Below, one piece after another: positions 1 to 50,766 of a stretch of 64,000 nucleotides of DNA. This DNA is from an uncultured Candidatus Saccharibacteria bacterium (GTDB lineage Bacteria > Patescibacteriota > Minisyncoccia > UBA6257 > 2-01-FULL-56-20). Position 1 is the stretch's first letter. The number at the start of each line of letters is the position of its first letter. Made by a program: the position numbers and the translations under genes. A model generated the notes under the pieces. It saw only the letters and a list, made by a program, of their open reading frames with translations, was not told where the DNA came from and made no database searches. Location of the stretch: positions 34,675 to 98,674 of the forward strand of contig CAYIOP010000001.1 in the NCBI GenBank assembly GCA_964365185.1, in the 5' to 3' direction.

Positions 1-353
1 TTTTAAAAGAAGTTATCGGTTGCAGACATAAAGAGGAGTGTAATCATACCTGTAGCGGCGCTTTTAAAGTTACTGAATTTGAATTAAATTTTTATAAAGA
101 TTTTAATATTCCCTTGCCTAATCTTTGTTCAAATTGCCGGCATTTTGAACGATCAGAGGAGATGACTCCGATGAAACTTTTTAGCGGGCATTGTAATTGT
201 TTGGGTGAGAAGTCCACCGGCGGAATTTATCAAAATCAGGTCAATCATTTTCACGGCAAAGAGAAATGTCCGAATGAGTTTGAAACGAGTTATAGTCCAG
301 ATCAAGGAAAAATTGTGTATTGCAAGGAATGCTACCAGCAAGAAGTAGCATAA
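1..353 (+). CDS. Cys-rich zinc-ribbon family protein, 3' fragment (5' end lies outside window)
   Basis: The frame is open from nt 3 to the stop at 351-353. The translation GCRHKEECNHTCSGAFKVTEFELNFYKDF.IPLPNLCSNCRHFER...HFHGKEKCPNEFETSYSPDQGKIVYCKECYQQE matches the C-terminal A'-B' zinc-ribbon pair of the 13175..14977 family (LCSNCRHYERL...HCPNEFETTYAP...IIYCEECYQQEII). Confidence 0.6.
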   Translation, partial: LKEVIGCRHKEECNHTCSGAFKVTEFELNFYKDFNIPLPNLCSNCRHFERSEEMTPMKLFSGHCNCLGEKSTGGIYQNQVNHFHGKEKCPNEFETSYSPDQGKIVYCKECYQQEVA

Positions 354-356
354 AAT

Positions 357-387
357 TAGAATCTAGGATTGAGAATATAGATTATAG
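357..387. repeat. heptad-periodic TAG repeat (TAG at 357, 364, 378, 385; GAG at 371)
   Basis: Read directly in the sequence: tagaatc taggatt gagaata tagatta taggtgg, starting immediately after the stop codon of the upstream + gene. Confidence 0.5.
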
Positions 388-439
388 GTGGCGAAATTTA
401 AATTTCTTTTTCTAAATCCTATATTCTAAATTCTGTATC

Positions 440-946
440 CTAATTTTTTTTCGTGCGTTCCAGAAAATCTTTGAGTGATTTAGGGGAGCTCGCAAAATGG
501 AGTAGGATGCCGAAAGTCGCGCCTAGAGTGACTGAGAGTAAGAGGTCGTTGTGTTCTCTAATTAGAAGGTAATCAACCAAGGCGTAGAGTGAGAGCGTAG
601 TGATTAAAAGTACAGTGAGACCGATGGTTTTTAAGCCAGCCACTGTTTTTTTGGCGCTGAAAAGAATAAGAGTGATTAAACTTGAAGCAAAGGCCAACCA
701 GAGATTAAATCCCTGGAAAATTGGGTTATTAGGGAAGCCGACGCTCGTGAACATTCCGGCTTTATAAACTACGATTATCGCCACTAAAATTACTCCTCCC
801 CAAAATCCGGCTTTAATGGATTTTACCTCTTTAACAAAATCCGGATCTTTGGCGGTTTGTTTGGTGGTCAAGACAATAACTAAAAGAATAAACGGCACTA
901 TGACCCAGATGATGAGGTTGAACAAAAAATCCAGGGTTTTAGGCAT
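440..946 (-). CDS. hypothetical integral membrane protein (4-5 predicted TM helices)
   Basis: 168-aa ORF with strongly hydrophobic segments and no recognisable catalytic motif. Confidence 0.4.
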   Translation of the reverse strand: MPKTLDFLFNLIIWVIVPFILLVIVLTTKQTAKDPDFVKEVKSIKAGFWGGVILVAIIVVYKAGMFTSVGFPNNPIFQGFNLWLAFASSLITLILFSAKKTVAGLKTIGLTVLLITTLSLYALVDYLLIREHNDLLLSVTLGATFGILLHFASSPKSLKDFLERTKKN

Positions 947-1101
947 ATTTAAAAGTGTAAAATTTAAAAATCAAAGTGGAAAATAACAATGAAAAATTGA
1001 AAATGACTTCGGTTAAATTATATAACTTGAGTTAGAGTTTCGCAATATCTCACTGGTATTTCCAAGTTCCTGTTTTTAAAGTAAAATAATAGAGATTATT
1101 T

Positions 1102-2922
1102 ATGCCTAAATTAAGACCAGATGTAGTTTATTTCGCCAGAACGGATTTTAGGAATACTAAGCGGCTTTTTGGAATTAAACGTAAGGATCGTCGGCAACAC
1201 AACTATGTGGTTGGTAAGACCGGAACCGGTAAAACAGCGTTGATTCATAATATGGTGGTTCAGGATATTACCAATGGCGAGGGGGTCTGCGTGGTCGACC
1301 CTCACGGTGAGTTTGTGGAGAGTTTGCTCGCAAAAATCCCGGAAGAGCGGATTGATGATGTTATTTATTTTAATCCGGCGGATATTGACCATCCAATTGG
1401 GTTCAACCCGCTTGAATTGCCAGACCCTAAATACCGACATTTGGCCGCATCGGGGTTGATGGCGATTTTTACGAAAATTTGGTCTAATGTTTGGTCGGCT
1501 CGGATGGAATATATTTTAAACAACGCAATTTTGGCGCTTTTAGAAAACTCTAATTCAACTTTACTTGGGATAAATCGGATTTTAGTGGATAAAGATTTTC
1601 GTCAAAAGATTGTGGCGAATGTTAAAGACCCGGTGGTCAGGGCTTTTTGGATTAATGAATTTGAGGCCTGGAGAGATCAGTTTAGGAATGAGGCCATTGC
1701 TCCGATTCAAAATAAAGTGGGTCAGTTTTTGTCAACGGATTTAATTCGAAACGTGGTGGGGCAGACCAAAAGCACGATTGATGTTTTTGACATTATGAAT
1801 AATCGAAAGATTTTTCTAGTTAATGTTTCCAAAGGTAGAATTGGTGAAGACAATTCCGCGCTTCTGGGGGCGATGTTGATTACTAAAATTCAACTGGCTG
1901 CGATGGAGCGAGTTCGAATTCCGGAAGAGGAGCGGGCTGATTTTTATCTTTACGTGGACGAGTTTCAAAATTTCGCGACCGATTCTTTTGCGGGAATTTT
2001 GTCGGAAGCCAGAAAATACCGATTAAATTTAATTATTGCCCATCAATATGTCGGTCAGTTAGTGACAGATGTTTCAACTAAGGTTAGAGACGCGGTTTTC
2101 GGTAACTGTGGAACAATGATGGTTTTTAGAGTTGGCGCCACTGACGCCGAATTTTTGGAAAAAGAATTTACACCGGAATTTATGATTGAGGATTTGGTAA
2201 ATTTACCCAATTACGCAATTTACCTTAAATTAATGGTGGATGGCGTGACTTCCCGGCCTTTCTCGGCCGCGACTTTACCACCGTTTAAGATTCCAACTTC
2301 AGCCGTCACAATCGAGCGGGTAGTTGATATTTCTCGATTAAATTATACTTTGCCCAAAGAGGAGGTTGAGGAGGCGATAATTAAGTGGAGTGGCAGTATG
2401 GGCGATTCAGATTCTGGCAGTATAGAGAGGAGAGGTGAAAATGTTTTGGCGGCGGGACATAAAGTTCAGGCCACTTGTTCTTCTTGTGGTAAGCGAACTG
2501 AATTAAATTTTATTCCCACTGAGGGCCGGGCGGTTTATTGTAAAGATTGTCTCCAGAAAATTAAATCCGGAGAGATGTCTAGGGTTAAGGTGGGGAAAAT
2601 TAAAGAGTTAAGGCCGTCTGAGAAAGACCCGTCGGATTTGGCGTTTTTGGGCATTGAATTTAAACAATCGAAGCCGGAAGAAAAGAGGGAAGATGGTTTT
2701 GAACAAAAATCTGGACTGGCAGCGCCACCGACAAAAGAAACTTCTGAATTCCACGAAATTTCGCGGTCAACCGAACCAAAGATTTCCTTAAGTGAGCTTA
2801 AACAAGTGGATACAGTGCCGAGAGACAAGAAATCAGACCAAGTTAGTATTGATGAGTTGAGAAAGTCCATCGAACGGGCGCTTGAAAGCCAAAGCGAATC
2901 AAGTCAAGAGGGGAACGAATGA
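1102..2922 (+). CDS. DUF87-type P-loop NTPase (HerA/TraD/VirD4-like) with long low-complexity C-terminal tail ending in a zinc ribbon
   Basis: Walker A is [10 protein letters not shown], followed by a DPHGEF motif, a Walker-B-like [10 protein letters not shown], then AHQ. The C-terminal [25 protein letters not shown] is the B-type zinc ribbon of the Cys-rich family. The stop overlaps the trmD start (ATGA at 2919-2922). Confidence 0.7.
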
Positions 2923-3605
2923 AAATAAAAACCAAATCCGGAAAAATTCGGTTTGACGCCATTACGATTTTCCCTAAAATATTCGATTCTTATTTGAAAG
3001 AATCGCTTTTTAAGCGCGCTTTGGCGAATAAATTAATTGAATTTAAAGTTTGGAATCTTCGAGATTTTACGCAAGACAAACATCATAAAGTTGATGATCG
3101 GCCGTTTGGGGGCGGGCCGGGAATGGTTTTAAAAATTGAGCCGATATATCGGGCAGTATCGTTTTTAAGCGAAAAACGAAAAGCGAAAAGCGAAAAGTTG
3201 AAAATCAGGGTTATTTTGTTTTCAACAAGAGGAAAAAAGTTAGATGTTAAAATGGCGCGGCGACTTTTGAGTTATGATCAGTTGATTTTAATTTGTGGCC
3301 GGTATGAAGGAGTAGATGAAAGAGTGGTGAGATATGTAGTGGATGAAGAAATTTCAATCGGGGATTATGTTTTATCTGGAGGTGAATTGCCGGCTTTGGT
3401 TTTAGTGGAAACGGTAGCTCGTTTAATCCCCGGTTTTCTCGGAAAATATGAATCCCTTGAGGATGTTAAGGGATTTTATCCGGTTTACACTCGGCCCGGA
3501 GATTTTAAACCGGAGGGGAAAATAAAATTTTTGAGCGCGCCAAAAATTCTTTTGTCTGGAGACCATAAGAAAATAAAAGCGTGGCGGGATAAATTTAACA
3601 ATTAA
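2919..3605 (+). CDS. trmD: tRNA (guanine37-N1)-methyltransferase TrmD
   Basis: Contains [22 protein letters not shown] and [17 protein letters not shown], the SPOUT-fold motifs of TrmD. It also carries an in-frame KRKAKSEK insert encoded by a gaaaagc heptad repeat. Confidence 0.85.
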
Positions 3606-3644
3606 GTTTAATTAAATGGATTGGTATTGTTTATGGATAAAGCT

Positions 3645-3716
3645 ATCAAGATTTTGCAAGTAATTTTCTTCCTAGCCAAAAGGCCTAAGTCAGAAACTTA
3701 CTTGCAAAATCTTGAT
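3645..3716 (+). repeat. long stem-loop: 19-bp perfect inverted repeat (3645-3663 and 3698-3716) with 34-nt loop
   Basis: atcaagattttgcaagtaa ... ttacttgcaaaatcttgat, read directly. It sits between trmD and comEC. A T-rich stretch follows, so it may be a terminator. Confidence 0.4.
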
Positions 3717-3771
3717 TGATTGGTGTAAGTATTTTCTTCTTAGATAAAACGTCTAAATTTGATTTTATTTT

Positions 3772-5199
3772 ATGTTTAAATCGCAGATTGTGACTTTTGC
3801 GGGAGTGTTTTTACTAATCGGTATTTTTGCCGCTTCTTCAGGATGGAGTTTTTACGGGACGAGTTTTTTGATACTTATTTTTCTTTTTGCGTTTTTTTGG
3901 TATAAGAAGAGAGAAAAATTTTATAAGGGAATAGCGCTAATTTTTATTTTTTTCGCTCTCGGATTTTTTTATTATCATTTTTTTACCAATTTTTTTGAAG
4001 TTAGAACCAAAGTAATTTTTAATCAGGAAATCGAATTTGTCGGAAAAGTGGTGAGCGATCCGCGTTTTTTTGAAAATACTCAAGTGTTTGATTTAAAACT
4101 TCAAGAATCTGATCAAGGCACAGTTGTGGTTTTATTGCCTTTGTCGCCGAAATTTGAATATGGCGACCAAGTTAAATTTAATGGAAAAATTGAAAGAGGC
4201 GTGGATAGACGAACTAAACCAACAGTTTTTTTTCCGGACGCGAATTTACTTCAAAAACATCAAGGTTTTTGGGTTAAGGAAAAACTTTTGCGTTTTAAAG
4301 CAGTCCAGCTGGCTCAATTTCGGCGATTTTTATCTCGCGATCAGGCCGCGCTTTTAGCTGGTGAAACCTTTGGTTTTCGAGGAGATTTTACCGAAGAATT
4401 GAAATCGGCGATGAATTTAAGCGGCACTACGCATATCGTGGCTCTTTCTGGATATAATATCGCTATTTTGGTTTTGGCGATTCAAAAAACACTCACCAAT
4501 TTTATGTCTAGGAAAAAGCGATTTTGGCTGATTATTTTGGTAATTCTGCTTTTTTTAATTATGGTTGGGGGTGAGGCGTCGGTGGTGCGGGCGGCGCTCA
4601 TGGGTTTCCTCGTGCTTTTGGCAAGAGAAGCGGGAAGGCCTTACGATGTTTTTCGGGCGATTATTTTGGCGGCGGTATTGATGGCGATACTTAATCCCAA
4701 TATTTTACACTACGACGTTGGCTTTCAACTTTCTTTTTTGAGTTTGTTAGGGTTAGTTTATCTTGAGCCAGTAGTGTCGAAATTTTTTAAAGTCCAAGAT
4801 AAACCCCCAAGTTTTTTAAGCTGGCGGGAAAATGGAATCATTGCGCTTTCGGCCCAGTTGGCTGTGGCGCCGATTATAATTCAAAATTTCAACCAATTCT
4901 CTTTAACTTCCATTTTTAGTAATATTTTAATTTTGGAAGTCGTTCCTTTGGCCATGTTTTTCGGTTTTTTAATTGGAACTCTTGCTTCAATTTGGAGCGT
5001 GTTGGGATTTCTCGCCGCAAAATTTACGGCAGTGATTTTGGCGTATCAGATATGGGTTATTAAATTTTTTGCCGGTATACCTTGGTTTATAGGCGGTCAG
5101 TTTTTCCCTAAATTTTTTTTAATCGGATATTATTTGATTTTGGCGTCTAGCGTATTTTTCTATTATTATGGAAAAAAGAAAGGAACAGGCTTCGGTTAG
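3772..5199 (+). CDS. comEC: ComEC/Rec2 competence channel, N-terminal and competence domains
   Basis: Polytopic membrane protein with NLSGTTHIVALSGYNIAIL, the ComEC competence-domain signature. The MBL domain is encoded by the separate next ORF. Confidence 0.7.
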   Translation: MFKSQIVTFAGVFLLIGIFAASSGWSFYGTSFLILIFLFAFFWYKKREKFYKGIALIFIFFALGFFYYHFFTNFFEVRTKVIFNQEIEFVGKVVSDPRFFENTQVFDLKLQESDQGTVVVLLPLSPKFEYGDQVKFNGKIERGVDRRTKPTVFFPDANLLQKHQGFWVKEKLLRFKAVQLAQFRRFLSRDQAALLAGETFGFRGDFTEELKSAMNLSGTTHIVALSGYNIAILVLAIQKTLTNFMSRKKRFWLIILVILLFLIMVGGEASVVRAALMGFLVLLAREAGRPYDVFRAIILAAVLMAILNPNILHYDVGFQLSFLSLLGLVYLEPVVSKFFKVQDKPPSFLSWRENGIIALSAQLAVAPIIIQNFNQFSLTSIFSNILILEVVPLAMFFGFLIGTLASIWSVLGFLAAKFTAVILAYQIWVIKFFAGIPWFIGGQFFPKFFLIGYYLILASSVFFYYYGKKKGTGFG

Positions 5200-5216
5200 G
5201 CCAATTAATTTTATTT

Positions 5217-6083
5217 ATGAACCAAAAAAATAATTTAAGTTTGATAATTTTTTTAATTTTGATTGTTTTTAATTTAGGAAGTTGGTATTTAGTGTTTTTT
5301 TCAAATGCCTCAAGTGAATCCGGGATTTATTTTTTAGATGTCGGTCAGGGCGATAGCAGTTTGCTTAAATTTGGTGGAGCCGAGATTTTGATTGACGCGG
5401 GCCCAAATTCAAAAGTAATTCAGTCGTTAGGGGCGAAGATGTTGGGGGATAAGTATATTGATTTAGGAGTAATAACTCATCCGGAACTAGACCATTTCAA
5501 TGGATTTAATTATCTTTTGAGCCGATATAATTTTGGGGCTTTTATAATTAACGGTCGGAGAGGAAGGACGGCCGAGTGGTCCGAGTTTTTAGCGGCGGCC
5601 GAGACCCATCAGATTCCAGTTTTAACTTTAGGAGCTGGGGATAAAATTTCTTACAATGATAATGAATTTAAAATTATTTCTCCAAGTGTTCAAGTTTTGG
5701 GTACTGGAGCGATGAATGATACCAGTTTAGTCGGCAAATTAGAAACTAGAAATTTTGGAGCTTTATTTTTAGGCGATATTAGCGAGAGTATTGAAAAATT
5801 TCTAATTCAAAATTATGAGCTTGAATTTCTGCGGGTTGAAGTTCTTAAGATTGCCCACCATGGCTCAAAATTTTCATCCAATAACGATTTTTTAAAAACC
5901 GTAGCGCCGAAAATCGCGTTAATTGGAGTGGGGGCAAGCAATACTTATGGTCATCCGACGCCTCAGACGCTTGAGCGGCTTACTAATTTGGAAGCTAAAA
6001 TTTTTCGAACTGACTTAGATGGAACAATTGTTATTCGGGAAATTGATGACAAATTAAAGGTTTTTTTGGGCATAGAGCAATGA
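5217..6083 (+). CDS. Metallo-beta-lactamase-fold protein (ComEC C-terminal domain as separate ORF with own N-terminal TM helix)
   Basis: FLDVGQGDSSLL, ILIDAGP, HPELDHFNG, AHHGS and TYGHP are MBL motifs typical of the ComEC C-terminal domain. The ORF starts 18 nt after the comEC stop. Confidence 0.7.
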   Translation: MNQKNNLSLIIFLILIVFNLGSWYLVFFSNASSESGIYFLDVGQGDSSLLKFGGAEILIDAGPNSKVIQSLGAKMLGDKYIDLGVITHPELDHFNGFNYLLSRYNFGAFIINGRRGRTAEWSEFLAAAETHQIPVLTLGAGDKISYNDNEFKIISPSVQVLGTGAMNDTSLVGKLETRNFGALFLGDISESIEKFLIQNYELEFLRVEVLKIAHHGSKFSSNNDFLKTVAPKIALIGVGASNTYGHPTPQTLERLTNLEAKIFRTDLDGTIVIREIDDKLKVFLGIEQ

Positions 6084-13174: not shown

Positions 13175-14977
13175 ATGAATCGGGAAATTCGAAATTGCCA
13201 AAATTGCAAAACTAATTTTGAAATAGACGCTTCGGATTTTAAATTTTATGAAAGGATAAAGGTTCCGCCGCCGACGTGGTGTCCGGAGTGTCGGATAGTT
13301 CGGCGAATGTCGGTTCAGAATCAACGGGCTTTATATAAACGAAAATGTGATTTGTGCGGAAATGAAATGGTAACTTTTTTCTCGCCAGAGGCGCGAGATA
13401 CTGTTTATTGCCAAAAATGTTGGTGGTCGGATAATTGGGACCCGTTTCAATATGGGCTGGAATATGATTTTTCCAAACCGTTTTTCGCTCAATTTAGAGA
13501 ATTATTAGATAGAGTTCCGTGGTCAGCGCTCCAGACAGTTTATACCACGATGGTAAATAGCGAGTATTGCAATATCGCTTCCTATCTAAAGGACTGTTAT
13601 TTAATGTTTAACTCTGATTACAGCGAGGATTGTTATTATGGAACTTATGTGGAACGGAGTAAGCGTTCATTTGATCTTTATATGGCTGACTACGCGGAGA
13701 TTTGTTACGAGAGCAATAATTTAGAGAAATGTTATCACGTTTTTTATTCGAGTAACTGCAATAATTGCATCGATGTTTATTTTTCAAGAAATTTGCGAGG
13801 TTGCTCGAAGTGTTTTGGTTGCGTTAATTTATCCAATAAACAGTATTACATTTTTAATGAGCCCTATTCCAAAGAAGAGTATTTTAGAAAATTGAAACAA
13901 TTCGATTTGGGGTCAAGAAAGACGGTTTTAGAATTACGTCAGCAGATGGCCGACTTTAATCTTAAATTTCCAAGAAAATTTGCGGAAGGATTTAAGAATT
14001 TAAACGTCTCGGGAGATTATGTGTTTAATTCCAAAAATACTTATTTGAGTTATGAAATGGCCGAATCCGAAGATTGTAAATTTTGCCAATTTCTTTTTAT
14101 TGAAACCGCGAAGAATTGTCAAGATGTGACGATGTGGGGTGGGGGACTTACCAACTCTTATGATTCAATGGGTATTGGCGGAGGAGCGGACCAGATTAAA
14201 TTTTCTTTTGATTGTTGGGCAAATCTTATGAATATTGAGTACTGTTTCGATCTTTTGGTTATGAACTCAGACCTTTTTGGGTGCAGCCGATTGAAAAATA
14301 AAAAATTCTGTATTCTAAATAGGCAGTATTCTGAGAAAGAATATAATGATTTAATTCCGAAAATTAAAAAACAAATGGATGAAGTGCCTTATATCGATAA
14401 GAAGGGCCGAGTATATAAATATGGAGAGTTTTTCCCGCCTGAAATCCACTCTTTTGCTTATAATGAAACAATCGCACAGGAATATTTTCCATTGACTAAG
14501 GAAGAAGCTATAGACCAGGGTTTTCGTTGGAAAGATGCTCAAGATAAGAATTATCAAATTACGATTTCAAGCGACCAGTTGGCGGATAATATTAAGGAAG
14601 TTGAGGATGGAATTTTAGGCCAGATAATTGGCTGCGAACATTTTGGTAAGTGCAAAGATCAGTGCTCAGTGGCGTTTAAAATTACTCCTCGAGAATTGGA
14701 ATTTTATAGGGCCGAGAATATCCCAGTGCCTCGATTATGTTCGAATTGCCGGCATTACGAGCGATTAAGGAATAATAATCCTATGAGATTTTATCATCGC
14801 AGGTGTGGGTGTGAGGGGTTGCAAAGCGTAAAGAGCAAGGCGCAAAATAGTTATCAAAACGTGGCTCAACATTTTCATGGCGGCGATCATTGCCCCAATG
14901 AATTTGAAACAACTTACGCGCCGGAGAGAAGAGAAATTATTTATTGCGAGGAATGCTATCAACAAGAAATAATATAG
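13175..14977 (+). CDS. Cys-rich zinc-ribbon family protein (pseudo-symmetric A-B-core-A'-B')
   Basis: N-terminus CQNCKTNFEIDASDFKFYERIKVPPPTWCPECR (A), then KCDLCGNEMVTFFSPEARDTVYCQKC (B). The core has repeated C..C.NC and CFGCVNLSNKQYYIFNEPYSKEEY units. The C-terminus repeats A' (ITPRELEFYRAENIPVPRLCSNCR) and B' (HCPNEFETTYAPERREIIYCEECYQQE). Confidence 0.6.
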   Translation: MNREIRNCQNCKTNFEIDASDFKFYERIKVPPPTWCPECRIVRRMSVQNQRALYKRKCDLCGNEMVTFFSPEARDTVYCQKCWWSDNWDPFQYGLEYDFSKPFFAQFRELLDRVPWSALQTVYTTMVNSEYCNIASYLKDCYLMFNSDYSEDCYYGTYVERSKRSFDLYMADYAEICYESNNLEKCYHVFYSSNCNNCIDVYFSRNLRGCSKCFGCVNLSNKQYYIFNEPYSKEEYFRKLKQFDLGSRKTVLELRQQMADFNLKFPRKFAEGFKNLNVSGDYVFNSKNTYLSYEMAESEDCKFCQFLFIETAKNCQDVTMWGGGLTNSYDSMGIGGGADQIKFSFDCWANLMNIEYCFDLLVMNSDLFGCSRLKNKKFCILNRQYSEKEYNDLIPKIKKQMDEVPYIDKKGRVYKYGEFFPPEIHSFAYNETIAQEYFPLTKEEAIDQGFRWKDAQDKNYQITISSDQLADNIKEVEDGILGQIIGCEHFGKCKDQCSVAFKITPRELEFYRAENIPVPRLCSNCRHYERLRNNNPMRFYHRRCGCEGLQSVKSKAQNSYQNVAQHFHGGDHCPNEFETTYAPERREIIYCEECYQQEII

Positions 14978-22500: not shown

Positions 22501-24207
22501 CTATATAATTTCTTTTAAGTAGCATTCCTTGCATAGAATTTCTTTGTAGTCCTCTAGGGTATAGCTGCTTTGGAATTTACTTTGGCATTTAAAACAGGTT
22601 CGTTCCACTAAAGTTAAATCTTTCACCCAGTCCTGGAATTTTTTTTCAATTCGGCAAAAGGGACATTCGCGCGGCAGAGGTAGATTCATTTGTTTTAGGA
22701 AGTCGAGTTCGGACTGAATGATTTTGAAGCCGCGGTCGCATTTAGCGCAACCAATAATTTCATTTAAAATATCGCGTGGAGCGTCTTTGATATGATCCGG
22801 AAGATGTTCCGATTTAATTGAGATTTGATGATTTTTGGGTTCGCTTTCTTTCCATGCGTAGCCGGCATTTAGTGTTTGTTCTTTTGTAAGCGGAAAAAAA
22901 TTATTGGCCATAGTTTCATTATAGGCCCAAGGACTCATCTCGATTGGGAAAAACTCGCCGTATTTATAAATTTGTCCGCGGCTGTTTTTATAAGGCATCT
23001 CATTCATATGATTGATAATTTTTTCACGGAGTTGCCAATATTCCTTTTCCGGATATTTTTTGTTGAAAATCACAAATTTTCCTTTCTTGAGCGATGAACA
23101 GGCAAAGTAGTTAGCGCCGCCAAGCACGGTATTGCAGTATTCGGCGTCGATTAAATTAATTCCACTTTGAGTGGAAAACTTTACTCGATGAGCTCCTTCT
23201 CCGGTTACGCTTACTTCGTAGCAGAGTTCCATATTGTTGCCCCAACTGGTGATATCATAGCAATTCTTAATGGGTGCAACGGCGAGCATAAATAAATATT
23301 TAGAATCAATCGCTCCGGCGACCTCGTAGCACTCCTTACAATTTTTGGACTCAAAAACATAATTGCCGGTACAGTTCGTCACAAATTCCGAACAATATGG
23401 CAGAGGCGGATGTTTTTGCCAATTTTCTTCACTCAATTTTTGAGCCAGTTTATAGTTTTGATACGAGCCCAAGTCGAATTCTTTTAATTTTTTAGCATAT
23501 TCCTCTGGGGTATATTTCTGATTGAAAAATACATACTTTTGATTTCTAAGATTGGTCGAGCCAAAACAATTTTGGCAATTTGCGGAGTCCCGAAGAAAAT
23601 GGCAGTTAAGCGATTCAGTAACCTGCTTACGCAGGCCAACGCACCGGTTATTTTTGAAAGAATGTTCGCAGTCGTAGCAGAGTTCGGAGTGACTAATAAG
23701 TGATGAATCGAGCGTATTTTTGGAGTTAGTGACGTAGAAGCCATAGCTGCAATCTTCACTGAAGTCGGCATGAAACAGGAGGTAGCAATTTTTGAGATTG
23801 CCAACATGATTGTTGTATTCGGAGTTGATCATCGTGGGCAAGGCATTCGAGAGTCCGATGGTCGGTACTTCCAGCCAAAATTTCTTTAATTGCTCAAAGA
23901 AGGGTTGATTAAAGTCATAGTCGCGGCTATATTCATAAGGGTCCCAGTCATCAGACCACCAACATTTAGGGCAGTAGATTTTATAAAGGGACTCTGGAGA
24001 AAACATGGAAAGAGAGTTTTTGCCGCAAAGATCGCATTTCCGCTTGTAAATTTTTAAAAGATTAAAAAAAGCCAGGCGCCTTTGAAAGCGGCACTTGGGA
24101 CAAAAAGTCGGTGGCGGGACTTCAATTTTTTGGTAGAAATTAAAGTCCTCGGGTTCGATGGTGAATTCAGATTTGCAATCTTGACAAATCTTTGTTTCTG
24201 AATTCAT
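22501..24207 (-). CDS. Cys-rich zinc-ribbon family protein (tandem array member 1)
   Basis: MNSETKICQDCKSEFTIEPEDFNFYQKIEVPPPTFCPKCRFQRR at the N-terminus. Internal NCQNCFGSTNLRNQKYVFFNQKYTPEEY, and a C-terminal CPFCR...YKEILCKECYLKEII zinc-ribbon pair. Confidence 0.6.
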   Translation of the reverse strand: MNSETKICQDCKSEFTIEPEDFNFYQKIEVPPPTFCPKCRFQRRLAFFNLLKIYKRKCDLCGKNSLSMFSPESLYKIYCPKCWWSDDWDPYEYSRDYDFNQPFFEQLKKFWLEVPTIGLSNALPTMINSEYNNHVGNLKNCYLLFHADFSEDCSYGFYVTNSKNTLDSSLISHSELCYDCEHSFKNNRCVGLRKQVTESLNCHFLRDSANCQNCFGSTNLRNQKYVFFNQKYTPEEYAKKLKEFDLGSYQNYKLAQKLSEENWQKHPPLPYCSEFVTNCTGNYVFESKNCKECYEVAGAIDSKYLFMLAVAPIKNCYDITSWGNNMELCYEVSVTGEGAHRVKFSTQSGINLIDAEYCNTVLGGANYFACSSLKKGKFVIFNKKYPEKEYWQLREKIINHMNEMPYKNSRGQIYKYGEFFPIEMSPWAYNETMANNFFPLTKEQTLNAGYAWKESEPKNHQISIKSEHLPDHIKDAPRDILNEIIGCAKCDRGFKIIQSELDFLKQMNLPLPRECPFCRIEKKFQDWVKDLTLVERTCFKCQSKFQSSYTLEDYKEILCKECYLKEII

Positions 24208-24316
24208 TTTATTTTTTCCGAAATAAATTTGAGAGGTGATTTTTAAGTAGGGTCCAAAAAGCCCCTACGATAAGCTTAATAGTTCTAATGCGTATTTTGA
24301 TACTTGGATTCATGGA

Positions 24317-26107
24317 TTATTGAATTTCACCTTGATAGCATTCGGAACAGTAAATTATTTCAGGATCATTGTTTGAGTAGCTGGTCATAAATTTATTTTG
24401 ACACTTTGTTTCGCCATGAAGATGGGCGGTTCGATTTTCGTATATTATCTCTCCAGTTGAGTTTTCTGAAGTTCTTCCGCCACACATACAAAATTTTTCA
24501 GATAGATTATAGCGTTCTCGGCCGTTATTTCTGATATGGCGTCGGCATTCGGGGCAAAGTCGCGGAAGGGCGACGTTAATCATTCGGTAGAACTCCAGTT
24601 CCTTGGGAACGATTTTGAAAGCTCTTTTGCATTGGTGGGCACAATCTCCTCTATGAGAGCAGTTGATAATTTTTTCTAATATTTTGTCGTCCGTGTTTTT
24701 TATGTTATCCGGCAGATCTTCGGGATTTATGGTGTTCGCGTAGGTTTTTAGTTCCGCGTCTCGCCACCAAAGTTTTTGTTTTTGAGCTTTTTCTTTGGTG
24801 ATCGGGAAATAGCGCTGAGCTAAGGAGTTATTGTAGGCGCAGGTTGAAAATTCCGGCGGGAAGAATTCGCCGTACTTGTAAATGTGGCCAAGTTCGTTGA
24901 TGTAGGGTGTTTGCTTCATTTGTTCTATAATCTTCGGCACTATTTTTTCATATTCTTCCTTCGTGTATTGTTTATTTAGAATGCAGTACTTTTTTTTTCT
25001 TAACCCAACGCAGCCGAAAAGATGTTCGCATGATTGGCAAGTATCGCAGTATTGTAAATCTAAGCTTTCTCTGGCGCCGTTGGTGAATCTGATGTTTTGG
25101 GAATTAAACGCGCTGCTGGCGTAGATAAGCTCGCATTTTTCGCCTCCAGCGAAGACGTCGTAGCTGTCTTTGATTCTTCGGCCGCAGATTAGGAGATATT
25201 TGCTGTTTTCCGCGCCGTCTCTAACTTCGAAGCTATGCTGACAGTTTTTGGCGTTTTCGATGTCGTTGCCGGTGCAACCAACGGTGTTTTTTTCCGCCAT
25301 ATACTTTCTTGGGATTTTCGATTTAAGTTTTTCGAATTCTTTTTTGGCATCTTTTAAAGTTTTATGACTACCGAGATTTAGCTCCGACATTTTTTTTTCA
25401 TATTCTTTTTTGGAGTAGGGTTGATTGAAAATATGATATTGTTTGTTTCGTAAACCGACGCAGCCGAAACAGTTGGAGCAATTTCGGCAGTCGTAGAGAA
25501 ATTTTGAATCTAAACATTCATTGCATTGTTCAGAAAATAAAAGATTGAAACAGCGAGTACAAGAACAGGATTCATACATGTTTTCGCAAAAAATTAATAT
25601 TGAGACGTCAATGCATTTGCGGCTTACGGCAGGCGTGTCTGAATACATGCAGTCTTCAGAGAGATAGGCTCCGGAGACGAGGTAACAATTTTTTGAGTTT
25701 GAGGCCCAGGTGCAGTAATCGCAGTTTATTGAGTTAATTGAACGTACATTCGCTAAAGGAACAGAGTTTAAGAGTTTTAGAAATTGCTCGAAAAAGGGCT
25801 TTGAAAAATCGTAGTCGAGGCCATATTCGGTCGGATCCCAGGCATCGGACCACCAATAGTCGGAATCGTATATTTTGAGTCCTCTTTCCGAAGGATATCT
25901 AGAAATGAGTTCTTCGCTGTGGCCGGGTGCCTGGCATTTGACGCGGAAGAGCGCACCTTCATTCGACCAAATGAGTTTATGCATCATTCGGCACTTAGGA
26001 CAAAAAGTCGGCGGTGGGACTTTAATTTTTTCGTAGAAAGCGAAGTCATCGGGTTCGATGGTGAAAGTTGATTTGCAGTTTTGGCAAATTCGCGAATCTT
26101 GAGTCAT
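24317..26107 (-). CDS. Cys-rich zinc-ribbon family protein (tandem array member 2)
   Basis: MTQDSRICQNCKSTFTIEPDDFAFYEKIKVPPPTFCPKCR at the N-terminus. Internal CFGCVGLRNKQYHIFNQPYSKKEY and CEHLFGCVGLRKKKYCILNKQYTKEEY, and a C-terminal CPECR...IIYCSECYQGEIQ. Confidence 0.6.
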   Translation of the reverse strand: MTQDSRICQNCKSTFTIEPDDFAFYEKIKVPPPTFCPKCRMMHKLIWSNEGALFRVKCQAPGHSEELISRYPSERGLKIYDSDYWWSDAWDPTEYGLDYDFSKPFFEQFLKLLNSVPLANVRSINSINCDYCTWASNSKNCYLVSGAYLSEDCMYSDTPAVSRKCIDVSILIFCENMYESCSCTRCFNLLFSEQCNECLDSKFLYDCRNCSNCFGCVGLRNKQYHIFNQPYSKKEYEKKMSELNLGSHKTLKDAKKEFEKLKSKIPRKYMAEKNTVGCTGNDIENAKNCQHSFEVRDGAENSKYLLICGRRIKDSYDVFAGGEKCELIYASSAFNSQNIRFTNGARESLDLQYCDTCQSCEHLFGCVGLRKKKYCILNKQYTKEEYEKIVPKIIEQMKQTPYINELGHIYKYGEFFPPEFSTCAYNNSLAQRYFPITKEKAQKQKLWWRDAELKTYANTINPEDLPDNIKNTDDKILEKIINCSHRGDCAHQCKRAFKIVPKELEFYRMINVALPRLCPECRRHIRNNGRERYNLSEKFCMCGGRTSENSTGEIIYENRTAHLHGETKCQNKFMTSYSNNDPEIIYCSECYQGEIQ

Positions 26108-26130
26108 AGATGATTTTTGTTTTTTTGATA

Positions 26131-26162
26131 CTATTCTCTAATTCGCGCGAATTAGAGAATAG
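26131..26162. repeat. 32-nt perfect palindrome between array members 2 and 3
   Basis: ctattctctaattcgc|gcgaattagagaatag, read directly. It is preceded on the + strand by a T-run. Confidence 0.5.
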
Positions 26163-26181
26163 TTGGATAGAAGCGCCTTAA

Positions 26182-27834
26182 TTATGATATTTCGGCTTGA
26201 TAACATTCAACGCAGGAAATTTTTTGAAAAGTAAGTTTGGGTGAATAGTAATGTTCAATCTCTTTTTGGCAATAGACACATTTTCCTTTTTGCGGCTCCA
26301 TCATTAGAGTTAAGGGGTGAAAGCGGTTTAGGGTTCGCCAGTCAAAATGTTGTCTTGGTAGAGGGATTTCATGCTCGCGGTAAAACTGAAGTTCTGACGG
26401 GGCAATATTATAGCTTAATTTGGTTTCTGGACAGATGATGCGTTGTTTAGTAATGTCGTCTTTAACATTATCTATTTTATCCGGTAGGTCTTCCGACCTA
26501 ACTCCAACGTATTCCGGATTTTTAGGTTCTTCCCATTTAGCTCCGAATTTTAAAGCGCCCTCTTTTGTTTCGGGAAACATAATTTGAGCGAGAGAATAGT
26601 TGTATCCAGCATAGGCGGCGCTAAGTGGAAAAAATTTTCCCCACTCCCCTCTTTGCTTCATATCTGTTTCTATCTTTTTCTTTAGCGTTTCGTATTCTTG
26701 TTGGCTATATTGTTTGTTTAAAATGCAATATTTTTTCTTTCTTAATCCCACGCAGCCAAAACAATATTCGCACTCTTCGCAGTTATCCAGATAAGCGCTG
26801 TAGCGACAATAGCCGGTATAGAGATTACAGAAATTTTCATATCCCCATTGGTCCAGGGAACTCCGGGCGCATTTTTCCGATGGGCAGCCCACCGCATCAA
26901 TGAGGTCTTTACCGTCTATTCCCCTTAAAGAATAGCGGCAATTTTCCGATCTTTCCAAAAAATAACAGCTATGGCAGTTTTTGTTTTCCAATAAAAAGTT
27001 GCCGCTGGAATTTGAAATTTGGACATTAAAATGCGCGCGGTGAATCGTGTCTTTTTGAAGATGGCTCCAAAATTCTTTTTTTAGTTTTTCGACAGCGGAA
27101 TAAGAATTGAGTTCAAAACTTTTTATTTTTTTAAAATATTCTTCTTTTGAATAAGGTTGGTTTAAAATATAATATTGTTTATTTCTCAAATTCCAGGACA
27201 TAAAACAGTTTTGACAGTTGCGGCAGTCATAGAGAAAAGCGCCTTCTATACAGTCACGTGAGTTGAAGCAGTGTCGCAGTTTGAATCCCTTAAAACAATA
27301 GAGGCAGTCATAACATTTTTCTAGTTCAAAACAATAAGTTATATCCAGAGAATTTTTCGAGGCGAAAGCCCTGTAGCCATAACTGATATCCTCGATTTTC
27401 CAAGCTGACCTGGTGAGGTAGCAATTTTTTGATTCCCAAACATCGTCGGTCCAGTCACAATTGGTGTTTCTAAGACCGGTTTGATGAGGATGAGGAACTT
27501 TGGCTTGAAGTTCCATTAATTGTTCAATAAAAGGCCGGGAGGCGTCATAATCGCGGCCGTAGGCTAAAGAATCCCAGGCGTCTGAGACAAATTCTTCCCG
27601 TTCGTAGATTGGAAAAGGCACGCTCTCGGGTAAGACGGTAATGAGCCGTTTACCGCTTAGGGCGGAATTGGTGATTCGAAAGCGGCCAAAAATCCAAAAG
27701 GACAAAAGATATTTCCATCGACAGAGTGGGCATTGGTCTGGCGTCGGCAAATCGAATCTACTATAGAATTCTTTGTCGATATCTTCTATTTGAAATTCTT
27801 TTTGGCAGTTTCGGCACGTTTTGTTTTCAGTCAT
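26182..27834 (-). CDS. Cys-rich zinc-ribbon family protein (tandem array member 3)
   Basis: Start placed at M13 (MTENKTCRNCQKEFQIEDIDKEFYSRFDLPTPDQCPLCR) to avoid a 34-nt overlap with the upstream gene. Internal CQNCFMSWNLRNKQYYILNQPYSKEEY and CEYCFGCVGLRKKKYCILNKQYSQQEY, and a C-terminal ISCVECYQAEIS. Confidence 0.55.
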   Translation of the reverse strand: MTENKTCRNCQKEFQIEDIDKEFYSRFDLPTPDQCPLCRWKYLLSFWIFGRFRITNSALSGKRLITVLPESVPFPIYEREEFVSDAWDSLAYGRDYDASRPFIEQLMELQAKVPHPHQTGLRNTNCDWTDDVWESKNCYLTRSAWKIEDISYGYRAFASKNSLDITYCFELEKCYDCLYCFKGFKLRHCFNSRDCIEGAFLYDCRNCQNCFMSWNLRNKQYYILNQPYSKEEYFKKIKSFELNSYSAVEKLKKEFWSHLQKDTIHRAHFNVQISNSSGNFLLENKNCHSCYFLERSENCRYSLRGIDGKDLIDAVGCPSEKCARSSLDQWGYENFCNLYTGYCRYSAYLDNCEECEYCFGCVGLRKKKYCILNKQYSQQEYETLKKKIETDMKQRGEWGKFFPLSAAYAGYNYSLAQIMFPETKEGALKFGAKWEEPKNPEYVGVRSEDLPDKIDNVKDDITKQRIICPETKLSYNIAPSELQFYREHEIPLPRQHFDWRTLNRFHPLTLMMEPQKGKCVYCQKEIEHYYSPKLTFQKISCVECYQAEIS

Positions 27835-27836
27835 AT

Positions 27837-29504
27837 TTAGATAACTTTTTGTTGGTAGCAACTTTCGCAAAAAATAATTTCGGGTTGGTCAGGAGCGAAA
27901 TTTGTTTTAATTGGTTTTTGACAGTTCGCGCAATTGCGATCAAATATTTTAATTGGTCCTCTTCTATTTATCCTAGCTTGGTGGCGACAGTAAAAGCAAT
28001 GCCGCGGGAGAGGTATGGACATGAGTTTATAAAACTGGAATTCAGCTTGAATGATTTTGTAGTTTCGTTTACAAGAAACGCAGGCGAGAATTTCGTCTAT
28101 AATTTTTTCTGAAATTTCGCTAATATCATCTGGAATCTTTTCTGATTTCAGAGTTTCTTTTCCGGTTGTTATTTGAAGATTATCTTCCCAGCGATAACCT
28201 TGGGCAAGGGCTTCGTCTTTAGTGAGCGGCAAGTTGTCTTGCGCAATAGTTTCGTTATAGGCGAAGAGATTAAGAGCTGGTGGGAAGAAGAGTCCATAAT
28301 CCCCCGCCTGAATAAGTTCCTGCTTGATTGTGTTCGTAATTTGCCGATATTCTTTTTCGTCGTAGCGTTTATTTAGAATTGAAAATTTGGAGTTTTTTAT
28401 GCCATCGCAACCGAAACATTCTTGGCTATTACGCGTGGCGAAGCAATAAGCGACATCTTGAGCGTTTTCCACCCACCAAGAGCTGATGACTCTGGCGCTA
28501 TAACCAGTGGCAACTGCTTCCAACAACAATTCGGAGTTGCGGCCATGGCCGATAATGTCGTAGGTGTCTTTTGCTAATTTAACCGAGAAAGAGTAGTTGA
28601 CGTTTTCACAAAAGGCTAATTCAAATGAGGAGCGACAATTTTTTGATTCAAAAATGTAGTCGCCGGTTACAGCCACACTTTTTAGATTGTTGTTTTCGCG
28701 GCGTGGGAATTTAAGAGAAAATTCATCAAAGTTTTTCGCGAATTCTTTTATGGCGCTATAGCTGCCGATAATTGGTTCGACTTTCTTTTTCCACTCTTCT
28801 TTAGAGAGCGGTTCATTTAGAAAATGGTATTTTTTATGGCGAAGATTAACACAACCGAAGCAATTTTGAAGACCGACGCAATTTAAGAGAAATGAGGAAT
28901 CGAGGCATTCGGAAACATTTTGAGACCAAGAGACGCCTTTGCTGTTGTGAATATTTACTCCTTCGTAAATGTTTTCTGATTTATCAATATTGTAGCCGTC
29001 AAAGACATTGCGGCACTGGAGCATTCCGCGAGAATAGGCGCAGTTTTCATTATTGGGTCCGGAGTTGGCGACGAGATAGCAGTCCTTGTTGCCGCCAGCA
29101 AAGTTTTCATACGGACTGTTTACGCTTTTCATTACGTCGCTGCGGTAAAGTGCACATTTAGGAACTGAATGGGTTAATTCTTTGAATTGATCGAAAAAAG
29201 GCCGATTTGAATTATAAACTCGGCCGTAAGAAAAAGAATCCCATTTATCGCTATGCCAGCAATCGGGACAATATACCGTGAAAGTTGAGGAAGGGCTATA
29301 CATTGAAATAATCGGCTCATGGCAGAGATCACAGGAACGATTATATAAAACAAATTCGTTTCGAAATTGGGCCTTTCTTTTAAAGCGGCATTCAGGACAT
29401 AAAATAGGCGCCGGAACGCCCATTTTTTTATAGAAAGTGAAGTCGTCGGGTTCGATGGTGAACCCATTTTTGCAATTCTGACAAATTCTTGAATCTTGGA
29501 TCAT
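27837..29504 (-). CDS. Cys-rich zinc-ribbon family protein (tandem array member 4)
   Basis: MIQDSRICQNCKNGFTIEPDDFTFYKKMGVPAPILCPECRFKRK at the N-terminus. Internal NCFGCVNLRHKKYHFLNEPLSKEEW, and a C-terminal CFYCRHQ...IIFCESCYQQKVI. Confidence 0.6.
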   Translation of the reverse strand: MIQDSRICQNCKNGFTIEPDDFTFYKKMGVPAPILCPECRFKRKAQFRNEFVLYNRSCDLCHEPIISMYSPSSTFTVYCPDCWHSDKWDSFSYGRVYNSNRPFFDQFKELTHSVPKCALYRSDVMKSVNSPYENFAGGNKDCYLVANSGPNNENCAYSRGMLQCRNVFDGYNIDKSENIYEGVNIHNSKGVSWSQNVSECLDSSFLLNCVGLQNCFGCVNLRHKKYHFLNEPLSKEEWKKKVEPIIGSYSAIKEFAKNFDEFSLKFPRRENNNLKSVAVTGDYIFESKNCRSSFELAFCENVNYSFSVKLAKDTYDIIGHGRNSELLLEAVATGYSARVISSWWVENAQDVAYCFATRNSQECFGCDGIKNSKFSILNKRYDEKEYRQITNTIKQELIQAGDYGLFFPPALNLFAYNETIAQDNLPLTKDEALAQGYRWEDNLQITTGKETLKSEKIPDDISEISEKIIDEILACVSCKRNYKIIQAEFQFYKLMSIPLPRHCFYCRHQARINRRGPIKIFDRNCANCQKPIKTNFAPDQPEIIFCESCYQQKVI

Positions 29505-29520: not shown

Positions 29521-29790
29521 TTAAAGGATTTGATAGAGGGTTTCTATGTTATCGGTTCGTGCATCGATGTAAAACTTTCCAAATTCCTGTCTTAGAACCA
29601 GTAAGGAATATCTTTGTTCGTTCCACTTTGGATCTTCGAGCGCGAAATCCAAAAGTTCAATCCCCCGTTCAAGGGCCTCCTTAAATAATTTATCGTTTTC
29701 TGTTTGCCAAGTTTTGGCTCGCATAATTTCAGAACCAATCATAAGGAGTTGCTGGCTCTTGGAAAAAATATTCCATCTCTTTTGGGTCAT
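29521..29790 (-). CDS. hypothetical small protein
   Basis: 89-aa ORF tightly packed between the Cys-rich array and the DUF87 ATPase. No motif recognised. Confidence 0.3.
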   Translation of the reverse strand: MTQKRWNIFSKSQQLLMIGSEIMRAKTWQTENDKLFKEALERGIELLDFALEDPKWNEQRYSLLVLRQEFGKFYIDARTDNIETLYQIL

Positions 29791-30093
29791 TTAAAAAAGC
29801 AAATTTTCAACTACTTTTTTAACCTTTTCTTTGATAGCGGAGTCCTGAATTTCCATTGAGCGATTACCAATAGTCGGGCGAATATTAATCATTGAAACGT
29901 AATCAATGCGCTTTTCGAGTGGATAGATGTTTGAGCCCCATAGATTTTTGAAATTTGAGCCATCAGCTTGAAGTTCCTCGGCGCAGTCAATATGGAGTTC
30001 GCAGTTCATACTTAAAATTCTTTTTTCAATATCAACCACCACTTTTATAAATGAGATGTCTTTTGGTAAAATGGTTTTTTCGCGGACAATCAT
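29791..30093 (-). CDS. hypothetical small protein (start trimmed to M28 to avoid overlap with ATPase)
   Basis: The ORF track gives 29791..30174. The first 27 codons overlap the ATPase C-terminus, and the internal Met at 30093 abuts the ATPase stop at 30098. Confidence 0.3.
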   Translation of the reverse strand: MIVREKTILPKDISFIKVVVDIEKRILSMNCELHIDCAEELQADGSNFKNLWGSNIYPLEKRIDYVSMINIRPTIGNRSMEIQDSAIKEKVKKVVENLLF

Positions 30094-31566: not shown

Positions 31567-32154
31567 TTATAAGTCGGCAGGGTTTATTAATTCTAGCTCT
31601 TTTAAAATAACTTCAAAATTATGAATGGTTTTTTTAACATCACTTGAGTCGATTTCAAAATTGGGATCGTCGACTATTCTATTGTGATATTCGTGGGCTT
31701 TCATGCCGGCGCGCCTGATCCAACCCAGTTCCTCGGACATAATTTGATTGATTTTATCGCCGGTGTTCTCGCCGCTAAAGCCAACGTTAGTTAGGGCTTG
31801 GCCCACAAATTTATCAGCTTCGATGATGGCCAATTTCATCTGATCTAGATTGCCTGAAAAAGCTTTTTCTCGAATTGAGCACCAGAAATTTAGCGCGGCT
31901 TTTTTTTCAGGAGTAAGTGGAGCAGGGGGTCGTTTTTTGATATTGATATGGGGCCTGAACATTCTGGCTTTATTTAAGAGAAATAAAAAGGTGACAAAGA
32001 GGCCAATGTCAACAGCAATCCAAAGAATTTTGAAATCAAAAGCTGGTTTTCTTGGCCAAGTAGAGAGGTTTAGATAAATGGGCCAAGCTAAGAGAGAAAG
32101 GCCGATAATAAAAACTAGACCGTGCAGAAATTTTAAAAGCTTTTCGAAATTCAT
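31567..32154 (-). CDS. hypothetical membrane protein (2 TM) adjacent to ATPase
   Basis: 195 aa with two N-terminal hydrophobic helices, then a soluble domain. Its stop is 3 nt before the ATPase start. Confidence 0.4.
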   Translation of the reverse strand: MNFEKLLKFLHGLVFIIGLSLLAWPIYLNLSTWPRKPAFDFKILWIAVDIGLFVTFLFLLNKARMFRPHINIKKRPPAPLTPEKKAALNFWCSIREKAFSGNLDQMKLAIIEADKFVGQALTNVGFSGENTGDKINQIMSEELGWIRRAGMKAHEYHNRIVDDPNFEIDSSDVKKTIHNFEVILKELELINPADL

Positions 32155-44816: not shown

Positions 44817-44850
44817 CCGGCTCCGAGACAATGTCTTGGAGCCGCTTTTT
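44817..44850 (+). terminator. Rho-independent terminator of island operon
   Basis: ccggctccgagac-aat-gtcttggagccg followed by cttttt. The T-run overlaps the stop of the convergent GH130 gene. Confidence 0.45.
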
Positions 44851-48068: not shown

Positions 48069-48158
48069 GCTCGAAATGTTAGAATTGTGGGTTAATTATA
48101 TCATTAAAAATAAAAATTTCTCTTTAGTAAGCCGTCAGAGTAAGAAAGATAAATAGAG

Positions 48159-50761: not shown

Positions 50762-50766
50762 GGTCT

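Follow-up and report, generated by a model that had tools for sequence, protein, structure and literature searches.

What are two related P-loop ATPases doing on the chromosome of a member of the Patescibacteria? The question is raised by a stretch of 64,000 nucleotides from an uncultured organism deposited as Candidatus Saccharibacteria (contig CAYIOP010000001.1, positions 34,675 to 98,674; this whole stretch is called the window below), in which one ATPase is encoded by an open reading frame (ORF) of 606 aa on the plus strand (1102..2922, here ATPzf) and the other by an ORF of 488 aa on the minus strand (30098..31564, here ATP2). Composition and gene content, notably a split ComEC, DUF5674 and SecDF, agree with the names of the nearest database relatives in pointing to Paceibacteria of the Liptonbacteria/Jorgensenbacteria type, and contigs encoding identical proteins originate from the 0.1-um filter fraction of Hainich groundwater. 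Our data suggest, with a probability of roughly 50%, that both ATPases belong to a conserved, chromosomally fixed module built on a split type IV coupling protein (T4CP), and that the cysteine-rich (Cys-rich) zinc-finger proteins encoded near them are its clients or adaptors.

The two ATPases are paralogous, as a preliminary description of this DNA had proposed from their N-terminal 250 aa. Aligned by BLASTP over 416 residues, they are 44% identical (E 9e-139), and this stretch is the entire ATPase domain. The relationship extends beyond Walker A (GKTGTGKT in ATPzf and GKSGVGKS in ATP2), as the alignment shows Walker B (YLYVDEF in both) and the AHQY motif to be intact in the two proteins. They had been labelled as DUF87 ATPases, and both are indeed above the Pfam cut-off for that family (32.3 bits for ATPzf), but the label understates what they are, the best matches being to coupling proteins: TrwB_AAD_bind with 54.2 bits for ATPzf and 44 for ATP2 (cut-off 20.5), T4SS-DNA_transf with 27.9 and 30.5 (cut-off 20.1), and TraG-D_C with 30.7 and 26.6 (cut-off 22), the last being PF12696, whose name refers to the TraM recognition site of TraD and TraG. 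TrwB is their sole solved sequence relative. The NCBIfam equivalog models (TraD, VirD4-like CD1115 and others) reached at best 53-57 bits against cut-offs of 250-650, and no hydrophobic or transmembrane (TM)-like segment was found by hydropathy in ATPzf or ATP2. Coupling-protein matches above cut-off, equivalog scores far below it and the lack of a hydrophobic segment together make both ATPases divergent, anchor-less members of the VirD4/TrwB/TraD clade.

ATPzf has in addition a treble-clef zinc finger of the CxxC-x17-CxxC type (aa 455-487, 2464..2562 on the plus strand), which scores 45.6 bits with PF23477 zf_Tbcl_2 (cut-off 27) and 45.4 bits with TIGR04272 (cut-off 36), and a charged tail in which the short motifs LGIEF, SLSxLK and IxELRxSI are conserved. 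The finger was found at the same position in 78 of 84 ATPzf orthologues and in none of 50 ATP2 orthologues. At E <= 1e-10, ATPzf has more than 8,000 matches in the database, and its domain set recurs in nearly all of the 120 best. Identity among ATPzf orthologues is 55-81% (80 species) and among ATP2 orthologues 70-84%, against 44% between the lines; this places the duplication before the divergence of these lineages, and ATPzf and ATP2 are two old orthologue lines. Such conservation does not agree with the "accessory-looking" character ascribed to ATPzf earlier. In six loci with trmD, the tRNA m1G37 methyltransferase gene, the identities of ATPzf and TrmD were 81/67, 74/68, 68/63, 64/61, 66/58 and 60/53%; ATPzf is at least as conserved as trmD where both are present, and is core-like. 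The tail of ATPzf varies in some relatives: a NUDIX hydrolase domain is fused to it in a few orthologues (P0058, P0075, P0102, P0103), and Nomurabacteria-type orthologues have much longer tails, with proteins of 700-866 aa in loci L021-L043.

The surroundings of ATPzf were compared in 80 loci, one per GTDB species, whose ORFs were searched with the window proteins; the neighbour counts given here are for genes within 10 kb of ATPzf unless immediate adjacency is stated. ATP2 is present in 50/80 loci, Cys-family genes in 44/80, and one or the other in 62/80. Less frequent are a gene for a Sigma70 region 4 plus HARE-HTH protein (24/80), comEC (20/80), a gene for a DUF8128 protein (18/80) and trmD (5/80). 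Nearly all of the neighbouring Cys genes (117/118) and ATP2 genes (50/51) are co-directional with ATPzf. Directly next to ATPzf stands a Cys gene in 27/80 loci, ATP2 in 15/80 and trmD in 5/80. By a rough estimate for a genome of ~1 Mb, random placement would bring a Cys gene within 10 kb in <10% of cases, and the observed proximity is more than chance. The association of Cys genes with the ATPases recurs in Liptonbacteria-, Jorgensenbacteria-, Nomurabacteria-, Niyogibacteria-, Sungbacteria- and Staskawiczbacteria-type genomes. In the reverse search, which started from Cys genes, 16 of 36 metagenome loci of at least 12 kb carried one of the ATPases. The earlier argument, that the same association in two places supports a functional link, thus stands for the Cys family and the ATPase and can be extended widely; it does not stand for the membrane protein that had been included in the module, and gene order differs between the two places.

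At locus 1 of the window the order is Cys gene, then ATPase. At locus 2 it is ATPase, a gene for a DUF5674 protein, a small ORF and four Cys genes, as part of a minus-strand block running from 34628 to 22501 and consisting of ten tightly packed genes with gaps of ~0-110 nt. In relatives the genes of both loci are found together. Locus L008 has them in one co-directional run (the helix-turn-helix (HTH) gene, DUF8128, a protein with two TM segments (2-TM protein), ATP2, two Cys genes, ATPzf, trmD, comEC and a metallo-beta-lactamase (MBL) gene), L004 and L088 likewise carry them in a single contiguous cluster, and the order in Nomurabacteria-type genomes is ATPzf, a variable number of Cys genes, ATP2. 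These contiguous clusters indicate that the two loci of the window represent one ancestral cluster, putatively rearranged in this lineage. One inversion could account for the present arrangement. The GC skew of the window is positive throughout, regardless of gene strand, so that an inversion separating the two loci, if any, is not recent; the skew is ~+0.2 to +0.29 in plus-strand gene regions and ~+0.07 to +0.13 in minus-strand ones. The cluster of L004, a locus of a distant genome, is interrupted between ATP2, the Cys gene and ATPzf by genes for a PemK-type toxin and an IS481-family transposase (2619..5905).

Which part of the cluster would hold anchor-less ATPases at a membrane? Two proteins encoded upstream of ATP2 are the candidates. 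The first (32167..33552, minus strand, 461 aa) has one N-terminal TM helix by hydropathy. A weak-marked precomputed match to DUF8128 (PF26449) exists for the identical protein P0241; the local Pfam scan gave no DUF8128 match for P0241, nor for a relative in which the full-length gene call has one without such a mark. A VirB4-like fold is tentatively predicted for the protein. The DUF8128 profile retrieved no VirB4 among PDB sequences at E <= 10, and gave no profile match with the VirB4-like protein of Embleya. The second (31567..32154, minus strand, 195 aa) abuts the ATP2 start and has two TM segments and a conserved helical domain, as seen by hydropathy and in a family alignment from 12 loci; nothing above cut-offs was found for it in Pfam, NCBIfam or PADLOC. 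This 2-TM protein usually stands between DUF8128 and the ATPase (L004, L008, L009, L011, L012, L028, L031, L065, L069, L088).

A plasmid search with ATP2 led to relatives in conjugation loci. On a linear plasmid of Embleya, an 812-aa T4CP is encoded together with VirB6-like, PrgI, VirB4-like, replication-relaxation and NlpC/P60 genes, which make up a complete monoderm type IV secretion system (T4SS) locus. On a plasmid of Bacillus sp. F19, the gene for an 869-aa "DUF87 domain-containing protein" precedes genes for a replication-relaxation protein and a conjugal transfer protein. Residues 53-175 of this 869-aa protein are matched by the DUF8128 profile (hhalign Prob 95.2%, E 2.8e-8), and its residues 346-712 by ATP2 (BLASTP E 7e-25). 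The N-terminal 400 aa of the Embleya T4CP align more weakly with DUF8128 (E 0.0087), with LAxLxHxP and PPxxL motifs in common; by eye, these junction motifs can be seen in the Bacillus protein too. As the two window proteins match two parts of one chain, DUF8128 and ATP2 are the split form of a long monoderm-type T4CP. In the Bacillus and Embleya proteins the two parts are one polypeptide, encoded on plasmids beside the replication-relaxation protein and T4SS genes, whereas the Patescibacteria version is split, has the 2-TM protein inserted, is chromosomal and lies beside Cys-rich genes. Among plasmid proteins, ATP2 comes closest (38.7% identity) to an ATPase of 395 aa on Sulfitobacter plasmid NZ_CP081110.1 (L170, 99994..101181); the latter stands alone and anchor-less on this alphaproteobacterial plasmid, with adjoining transposases and no T4SS genes nearby.

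The 2-TM protein was considered as the linker of the single-chain form. Its profile has no match to the fused Bacillus protein, so it is not simply that linker. Inspection by eye found a PPxxL junction peptide at the DUF8128 C-terminus (GPPAGLAIFG, RKAGPPAGLAIFGEE) and again at the ATP2 N-terminus (PPPPELPIYG, YAPPPPELPIYGRI); it is not found in ATPzf, and in the single-chain proteins of Bacillus and Embleya it occurs once, where the two domains meet. The peptide may mark the split point, or it may be a docking peptide acting in trans. DUF8128 lies directly upstream of ATPzf in L034 and L076, and upstream of it via the 2-TM protein in L020. It could thus be speculated that DUF8128 may serve both ATPases. 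A small single-TM peptide beside the ATPases was also considered as a component; it was seen in L003, L004 and L019 and is not general.

The Cys-rich proteins are the second constant element of the neighbourhood. The window opens with the last 116 codons of such a gene (1..353, plus strand), an assignment made in the preliminary description from this 3' end. It is upheld by contig L085, from a metagenome of the same population, which supplies the upstream part and gives the full-length protein of 592 aa. The fragment 3..353 is 44% identical to the C-terminus of 24317..26107 (E 2e-29), and the full-length gene aligns with the latter from end to end (45% identity, E 6e-175). A tblastn census gave six paralogues in the window: the fragment, four in tandem on the minus strand (27837..29504, 26182..27834, 24317..26107 and 22501..24207, together 22501..29504), and a solo sixth one on the plus strand (13175..14977, 600 aa; 41% identity to 24317..26107 over the full length, E 9e-170). 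A 40-member profile matches 5,161 clusters (50% identity) at E <= 0.001 and 2,274 at E <= 1e-30; the best 150 matches are mostly of 540-610 aa and are covered over nearly the whole length. The names of close relatives are all "hypothetical protein", with no precomputed Pfam domain listed. The proteins contain 5-7% cysteine and no TM segment. No solved relative was found, and the body of the protein gave nothing above cut-offs in Pfam, NCBIfam or PADLOC; an AlphaFold2 (AF2) model reached pLDDT 82 / pTM 0.82. Both ends of the protein are alike, with a CxxC...CPxCR finger (sub-threshold zf_Tbcl) followed by a finger of the zf_Tbcl_2 type, as in ATPzf. Just before the last zinc finger there is a nearly invariant His-hydrophobic-His, seen in 3..353 (VNHFHG) and in 24317..26107 (H561, H563). 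It resembles the HUH motif of relaxases and Rep nucleases, and a zinc ligand pair is the more likely interpretation of this sequence.

On this basis the following model is proposed. The window would hold the two halves of one conserved cluster of class-Paceibacteria Patescibacteria, rearranged into two places. The core would be a T4CP split into genes: DUF8128 with the TM helix and VirB4-like N-domain, the 2-TM protein, and ATP2 as the soluble ATPase half. ATPzf would be an ancient paralogue with the same ATPase, without the junction peptide and with the treble-clef zinc finger and motif-bearing tail. In single-chain T4CPs the N-terminal part does the membrane holding; here we infer that DUF8128 and the 2-TM protein hold the ring-forming ATPases at the cytoplasmic membrane. 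The Cys-rich proteins of ~590 aa, with putative paired treble-clef fingers at both ends and a middle part that may be beta-solenoid-like, would be clients or recruiting adaptors of the ATPases, their genes occupying what could be the slot of the relaxase or substrate gene beside T4CP genes of conjugative elements. The shared zinc-finger type would serve as a common handle, by which the proteins could bind each other or the same ligand, plausibly a nucleic acid. The exit route could be a T4SS encoded elsewhere, ComEC, or neither.

A number of observations weigh against this model. No relaxase, virB4 or other T4SS gene was found in the 64-kb window, nor in the annotated relatives L001-L004, L088 and L174. 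Zinc-folded cytoplasmic proteins are unlikely secretion cargo. The T4CP homologue of Southlakia is reported to be non-essential for epibiotic growth (PMC12102498). The zinc-finger scores at the termini of the Cys family, 15-22 bits, are below the Pfam and NCBIfam cut-offs. In the remaining 20 of the 36 long Cys loci the Cys genes stand singly or form arrays, the largest with eight copies (L092), about 45% of the ATPzf loci have no Cys-family gene within 10 kb, and the window itself has the solo gene 13175..14977 far from both ATPases, among cell-wall genes, where it is flanked by those for an M23 peptidase and a Mur ligase. SecDF, PepM17 and comEC are also syntenic, and slow rearrangement in small genomes can mimic functional linkage. 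The link between the ATPases and the Cys family is strong, but because Cys loci without ATPase and ATPzf loci without Cys genes both exist, it is not obligate.

A narrower form of the split-T4CP model takes the ATPases as coupling proteins of a T4SS encoded elsewhere in the genome and the Cys-rich proteins as its exported effectors. Two reports describe a T4SS that is conserved in Patescibacteria and that Southlakia cannot do without, and whose T4CP genes are usually distant from virB4 (PMC12102498, PMC12857230). In the window and its relatives, Cys genes stand in the position of a substrate or relaxase gene beside the T4CP genes, and the eight-copy paralogue arrays also fit. On the other hand, the Cys proteins do not have the usual C-terminal signal features of effectors, are zinc-folded, and are fairly conserved and not fast-evolving; the window has no T4SS genes; and in Southlakia the T4SS is reported as essential and the T4CP as non-essential (PMC12102498). 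We regard this form as unlikely.

It could also be imagined that the ATPases work inwards, pulling DNA through ComEC in place of ComFA or in addition to it, with the zinc-finger and HTH proteins handling the incoming DNA. T4CPs are DNA translocases, and the first gene of the minus-strand block encodes a Sigma70_r4 + HARE-HTH DNA-binding protein. In the 20/80 loci with comEC it lies with its MBL partner downstream of ATPzf, and in the window the distance is 850 nt. Here ComEC is encoded by two plus-strand genes identified with Pfam (3772..6083), one for the Competence domain (3772..5199) and one for the metallo-beta-lactamase (5217..6083), the latter with an N-terminal hydrophobic segment of its own; the fused ComEC-MBL form is essentially absent in the candidate phyla radiation (CPR) (Meheust et al. 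2019, PMC6744442). ComFC/ComFA are reported as slightly depleted in CPR, yet they are still detected in 2,068 CPR genomes (PMC6744442). Moreover, in most loci 2-4 kb of housekeeping genes lie between ATPzf and comEC, including efp on the opposite strand, so that the proximity of comEC reflects synteny and not an operon, and a T4CP-ComEC link is not directly evidenced in any organism. A role in DNA uptake is accordingly given a low probability.

Alternatively, there may be no functional link at all, the ATPases, the DUF8128 block and the Cys genes being unrelated core genes kept together by slow rearrangement. Comparable synteny of SecDF, PepM17, trmD and comEC in subsets of loci agrees with this, as does the occurrence of Cys genes alone. 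But the Cys genes are upstream, downstream or between the ATPases depending on the lineage, and still adjacency and co-direction are kept; the DUF8128-ATPase pair is fused elsewhere; and the ATPase and the Cys family have a zinc-finger type in common. Mere coincidence of position is therefore quite improbable. Far less likely again is that the genes are left over from a mobile element, or that they form an anti-phage defence system with an ATPase of the HerA/FtsK type. Weak PADLOC matches to mad8 and HerA (E 1e-12 to 1e-14 and weaker), the plasmid location of the closest non-CPR relatives, and the transposase and toxin inside the L004 cluster would be in favour of such an origin, but dozens of species keep the genes at a fixed place in the chromosome with very high identity, there is no integrase or relaxase, the GC content equals that of the surroundings, viral contigs essentially lack the Cys family (one partial match), and PADLOC found no defence partner genes.

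The reading from which the preliminary description had started, a repeated accessory module of Cys gene, membrane protein and DUF87 ATPase tied to tRNA modification through trmD, was weighed on the layout of locus 1. The trmD gene (2919..3605, plus strand; PF01746, E 2e-45) indeed has its start in overlap with the ATPzf stop as ATGA, and in a Liptonbacteria-like sublineage the overlap is kept or the genes nearly touch (L001, L005, L010, L084, L125). The synteny check, however, gave trmD beside ATPzf in 5 of the 80 loci, the adjacency being confined to one sublineage. Elsewhere ATPzf is followed by efp in opposite orientation, by a Cys-rich gene or by ATP2; the overlap is thus a matter of gene packing in one sublineage and indicates no tie to tRNA modification. 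The membrane protein, of 168 aa with five hydrophobic segments (440..946), is encoded on the minus strand, convergent with the Cys gene and divergent from the ATPase, and falls outside the module. It shows no similarity to the 195-aa protein of locus 2, with which it had been paired as a shared flanking protein, recurs in 3/80 related loci, on the opposite strand in each of them, and gave nothing above cut-offs in Pfam, NCBIfam or PADLOC. With the membrane protein unshared between the loci, trmD a rare neighbour and the ATPase core-like, a tRNA-modification module can be set aside as hardly credible.

Other genes and signals were noted at the two loci. At locus 1, the 86-nt convergent intergenic region after the Cys gene (354..439) contains a long hairpin (RNA fold -23.6 kcal/mol, z = -3.3 vs shuffles), which is probably a bidirectional terminator; a simple terminator scan of 354..439 returned no canonical terminator site. 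ATPzf is preceded by promoter-like sites, and these together with the hairpin suggest that the Cys gene and ATPzf belong to separate transcription units here. At locus 2, the Sigma70 region 4 + HARE-HTH gene (33600..34628, minus strand, Pfam) is found just upstream of DUF8128 where both are present (e.g. L008, L028, L065, L076, L088), and its product may be a dedicated regulator or DNA-binding component. The DUF5674 gene (29791..30093; PF18924, E 1.8e-25) and a small ORF (29521..29742), together 29521..30093 on the minus strand, lie between ATP2 and the Cys array. On an unrelated metagenome contig (L133, 5521..6100) the same pair stands upstream of a five-gene Cys array, and DUF5674 directly follows ATPzf in L045, L058 and L078. 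The small ORF is of ~73-89 aa; the 89-aa form gave nothing above cut-offs in Pfam, NCBIfam or PADLOC. Elsewhere in the window, a minus-strand cluster at 44849..51816 encodes three GH130 (mannoside phosphorylase-type) paralogues, a GDE_C/GH100-like glycosidase and a 737-aa GT4 glycosyltransferase, its GC content of 0.45-0.46 being slightly above that of the rest. A tRNA gene at 52233..52306 (minus strand) is the sole Rfam match.

How does this module compare with known systems? The window ATPases are like VirD4, TrwB and TraD in their P-loop domain, which is above the Pfam cut-offs, and ATPzf has a C-terminal extension as TraD does. They are unlike these T4CPs in having no N-terminal TM domain in the same chain, the TM segments being in the separate DUF8128 and 195-aa proteins, in having no relaxase or T4SS neighbour, and in being two fixed chromosomal paralogues, one with a zinc finger. 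A survey counted 5,713 VirD4-type homologues across 2,918 genomes of Patescibacteria and placed only 148 of these homologues near virB4; its authors leave room for exaptation to another function (Quinonero-Coronel et al. 2025, PMC12102498). The window ATPases agree with these in number, about two per genome, and in being rarely near virB4; they are almost certainly the same genes. The words zinc and DUF87 are absent from that paper, and its searched passages mention neither a division into two orthologue lines nor a zinc finger, a partner of the DUF8128 type, a split or fusion, or Cys-rich neighbours. The survey does describe stand-alone TrsD proteins like the VirB4 N-domain, mostly beside virB4 (PMC12102498). 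DUF8128 differs from the VirB4 N-domain and TrsD in having no sequence similarity to VirB4 and in being paired with T4CP-type ATPases, not with virB4. With EccE/EccC of type VII secretion there is weak fold similarity, no sequence similarity and no other gene of such a system.

For the zinc finger, small CxxC-x17-CxxC proteins of Methanosarcina mazei offer a comparison, two members having been found to bind zinc by inductively coupled plasma mass spectrometry (ICP-MS) (PMC12704099). They have the same domain type as the ATPzf tail and are stand-alone small archaeal proteins, whereas the finger is fused to the ATPase in ATPzf and is repeated in the 590-aa Cys-rich proteins. The open-access literature yielded nothing relevant on the Cys-rich family, DUF8128, DUF5674 or a zinc-finger T4CP in CPR, and no description in it was found of the two lines, the zinc-finger tail, the DUF8128/ATPase split or the Cys neighbour family.

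Patescibacteria make up a large share of bacterial diversity, and they carry about two VirD4-like genes per genome, almost never beside a T4SS. The present analysis gives these genes an anatomy, consisting of two lines, a split with DUF8128 as the N-terminal half, a zinc-finger tail and an unannotated neighbour family. The remark that they are possibly exapted becomes a set of testable pairings, namely the docking partners of the ATPases and the ligands of the zinc-finger proteins, and a misleading lead is removed, as ATPzf and trmD overlap through a chance of local gene order. It is conceivable, with a small probability, that the Cys-rich proteins, of which there are >5,000 clusters, are cargo or cargo adaptors of the Patescibacteria T4SS, recruited by the split coupling protein and ATPzf. 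If that were true, the module would be the substrate-selection stage of a machine that epibionts need for life on their hosts.

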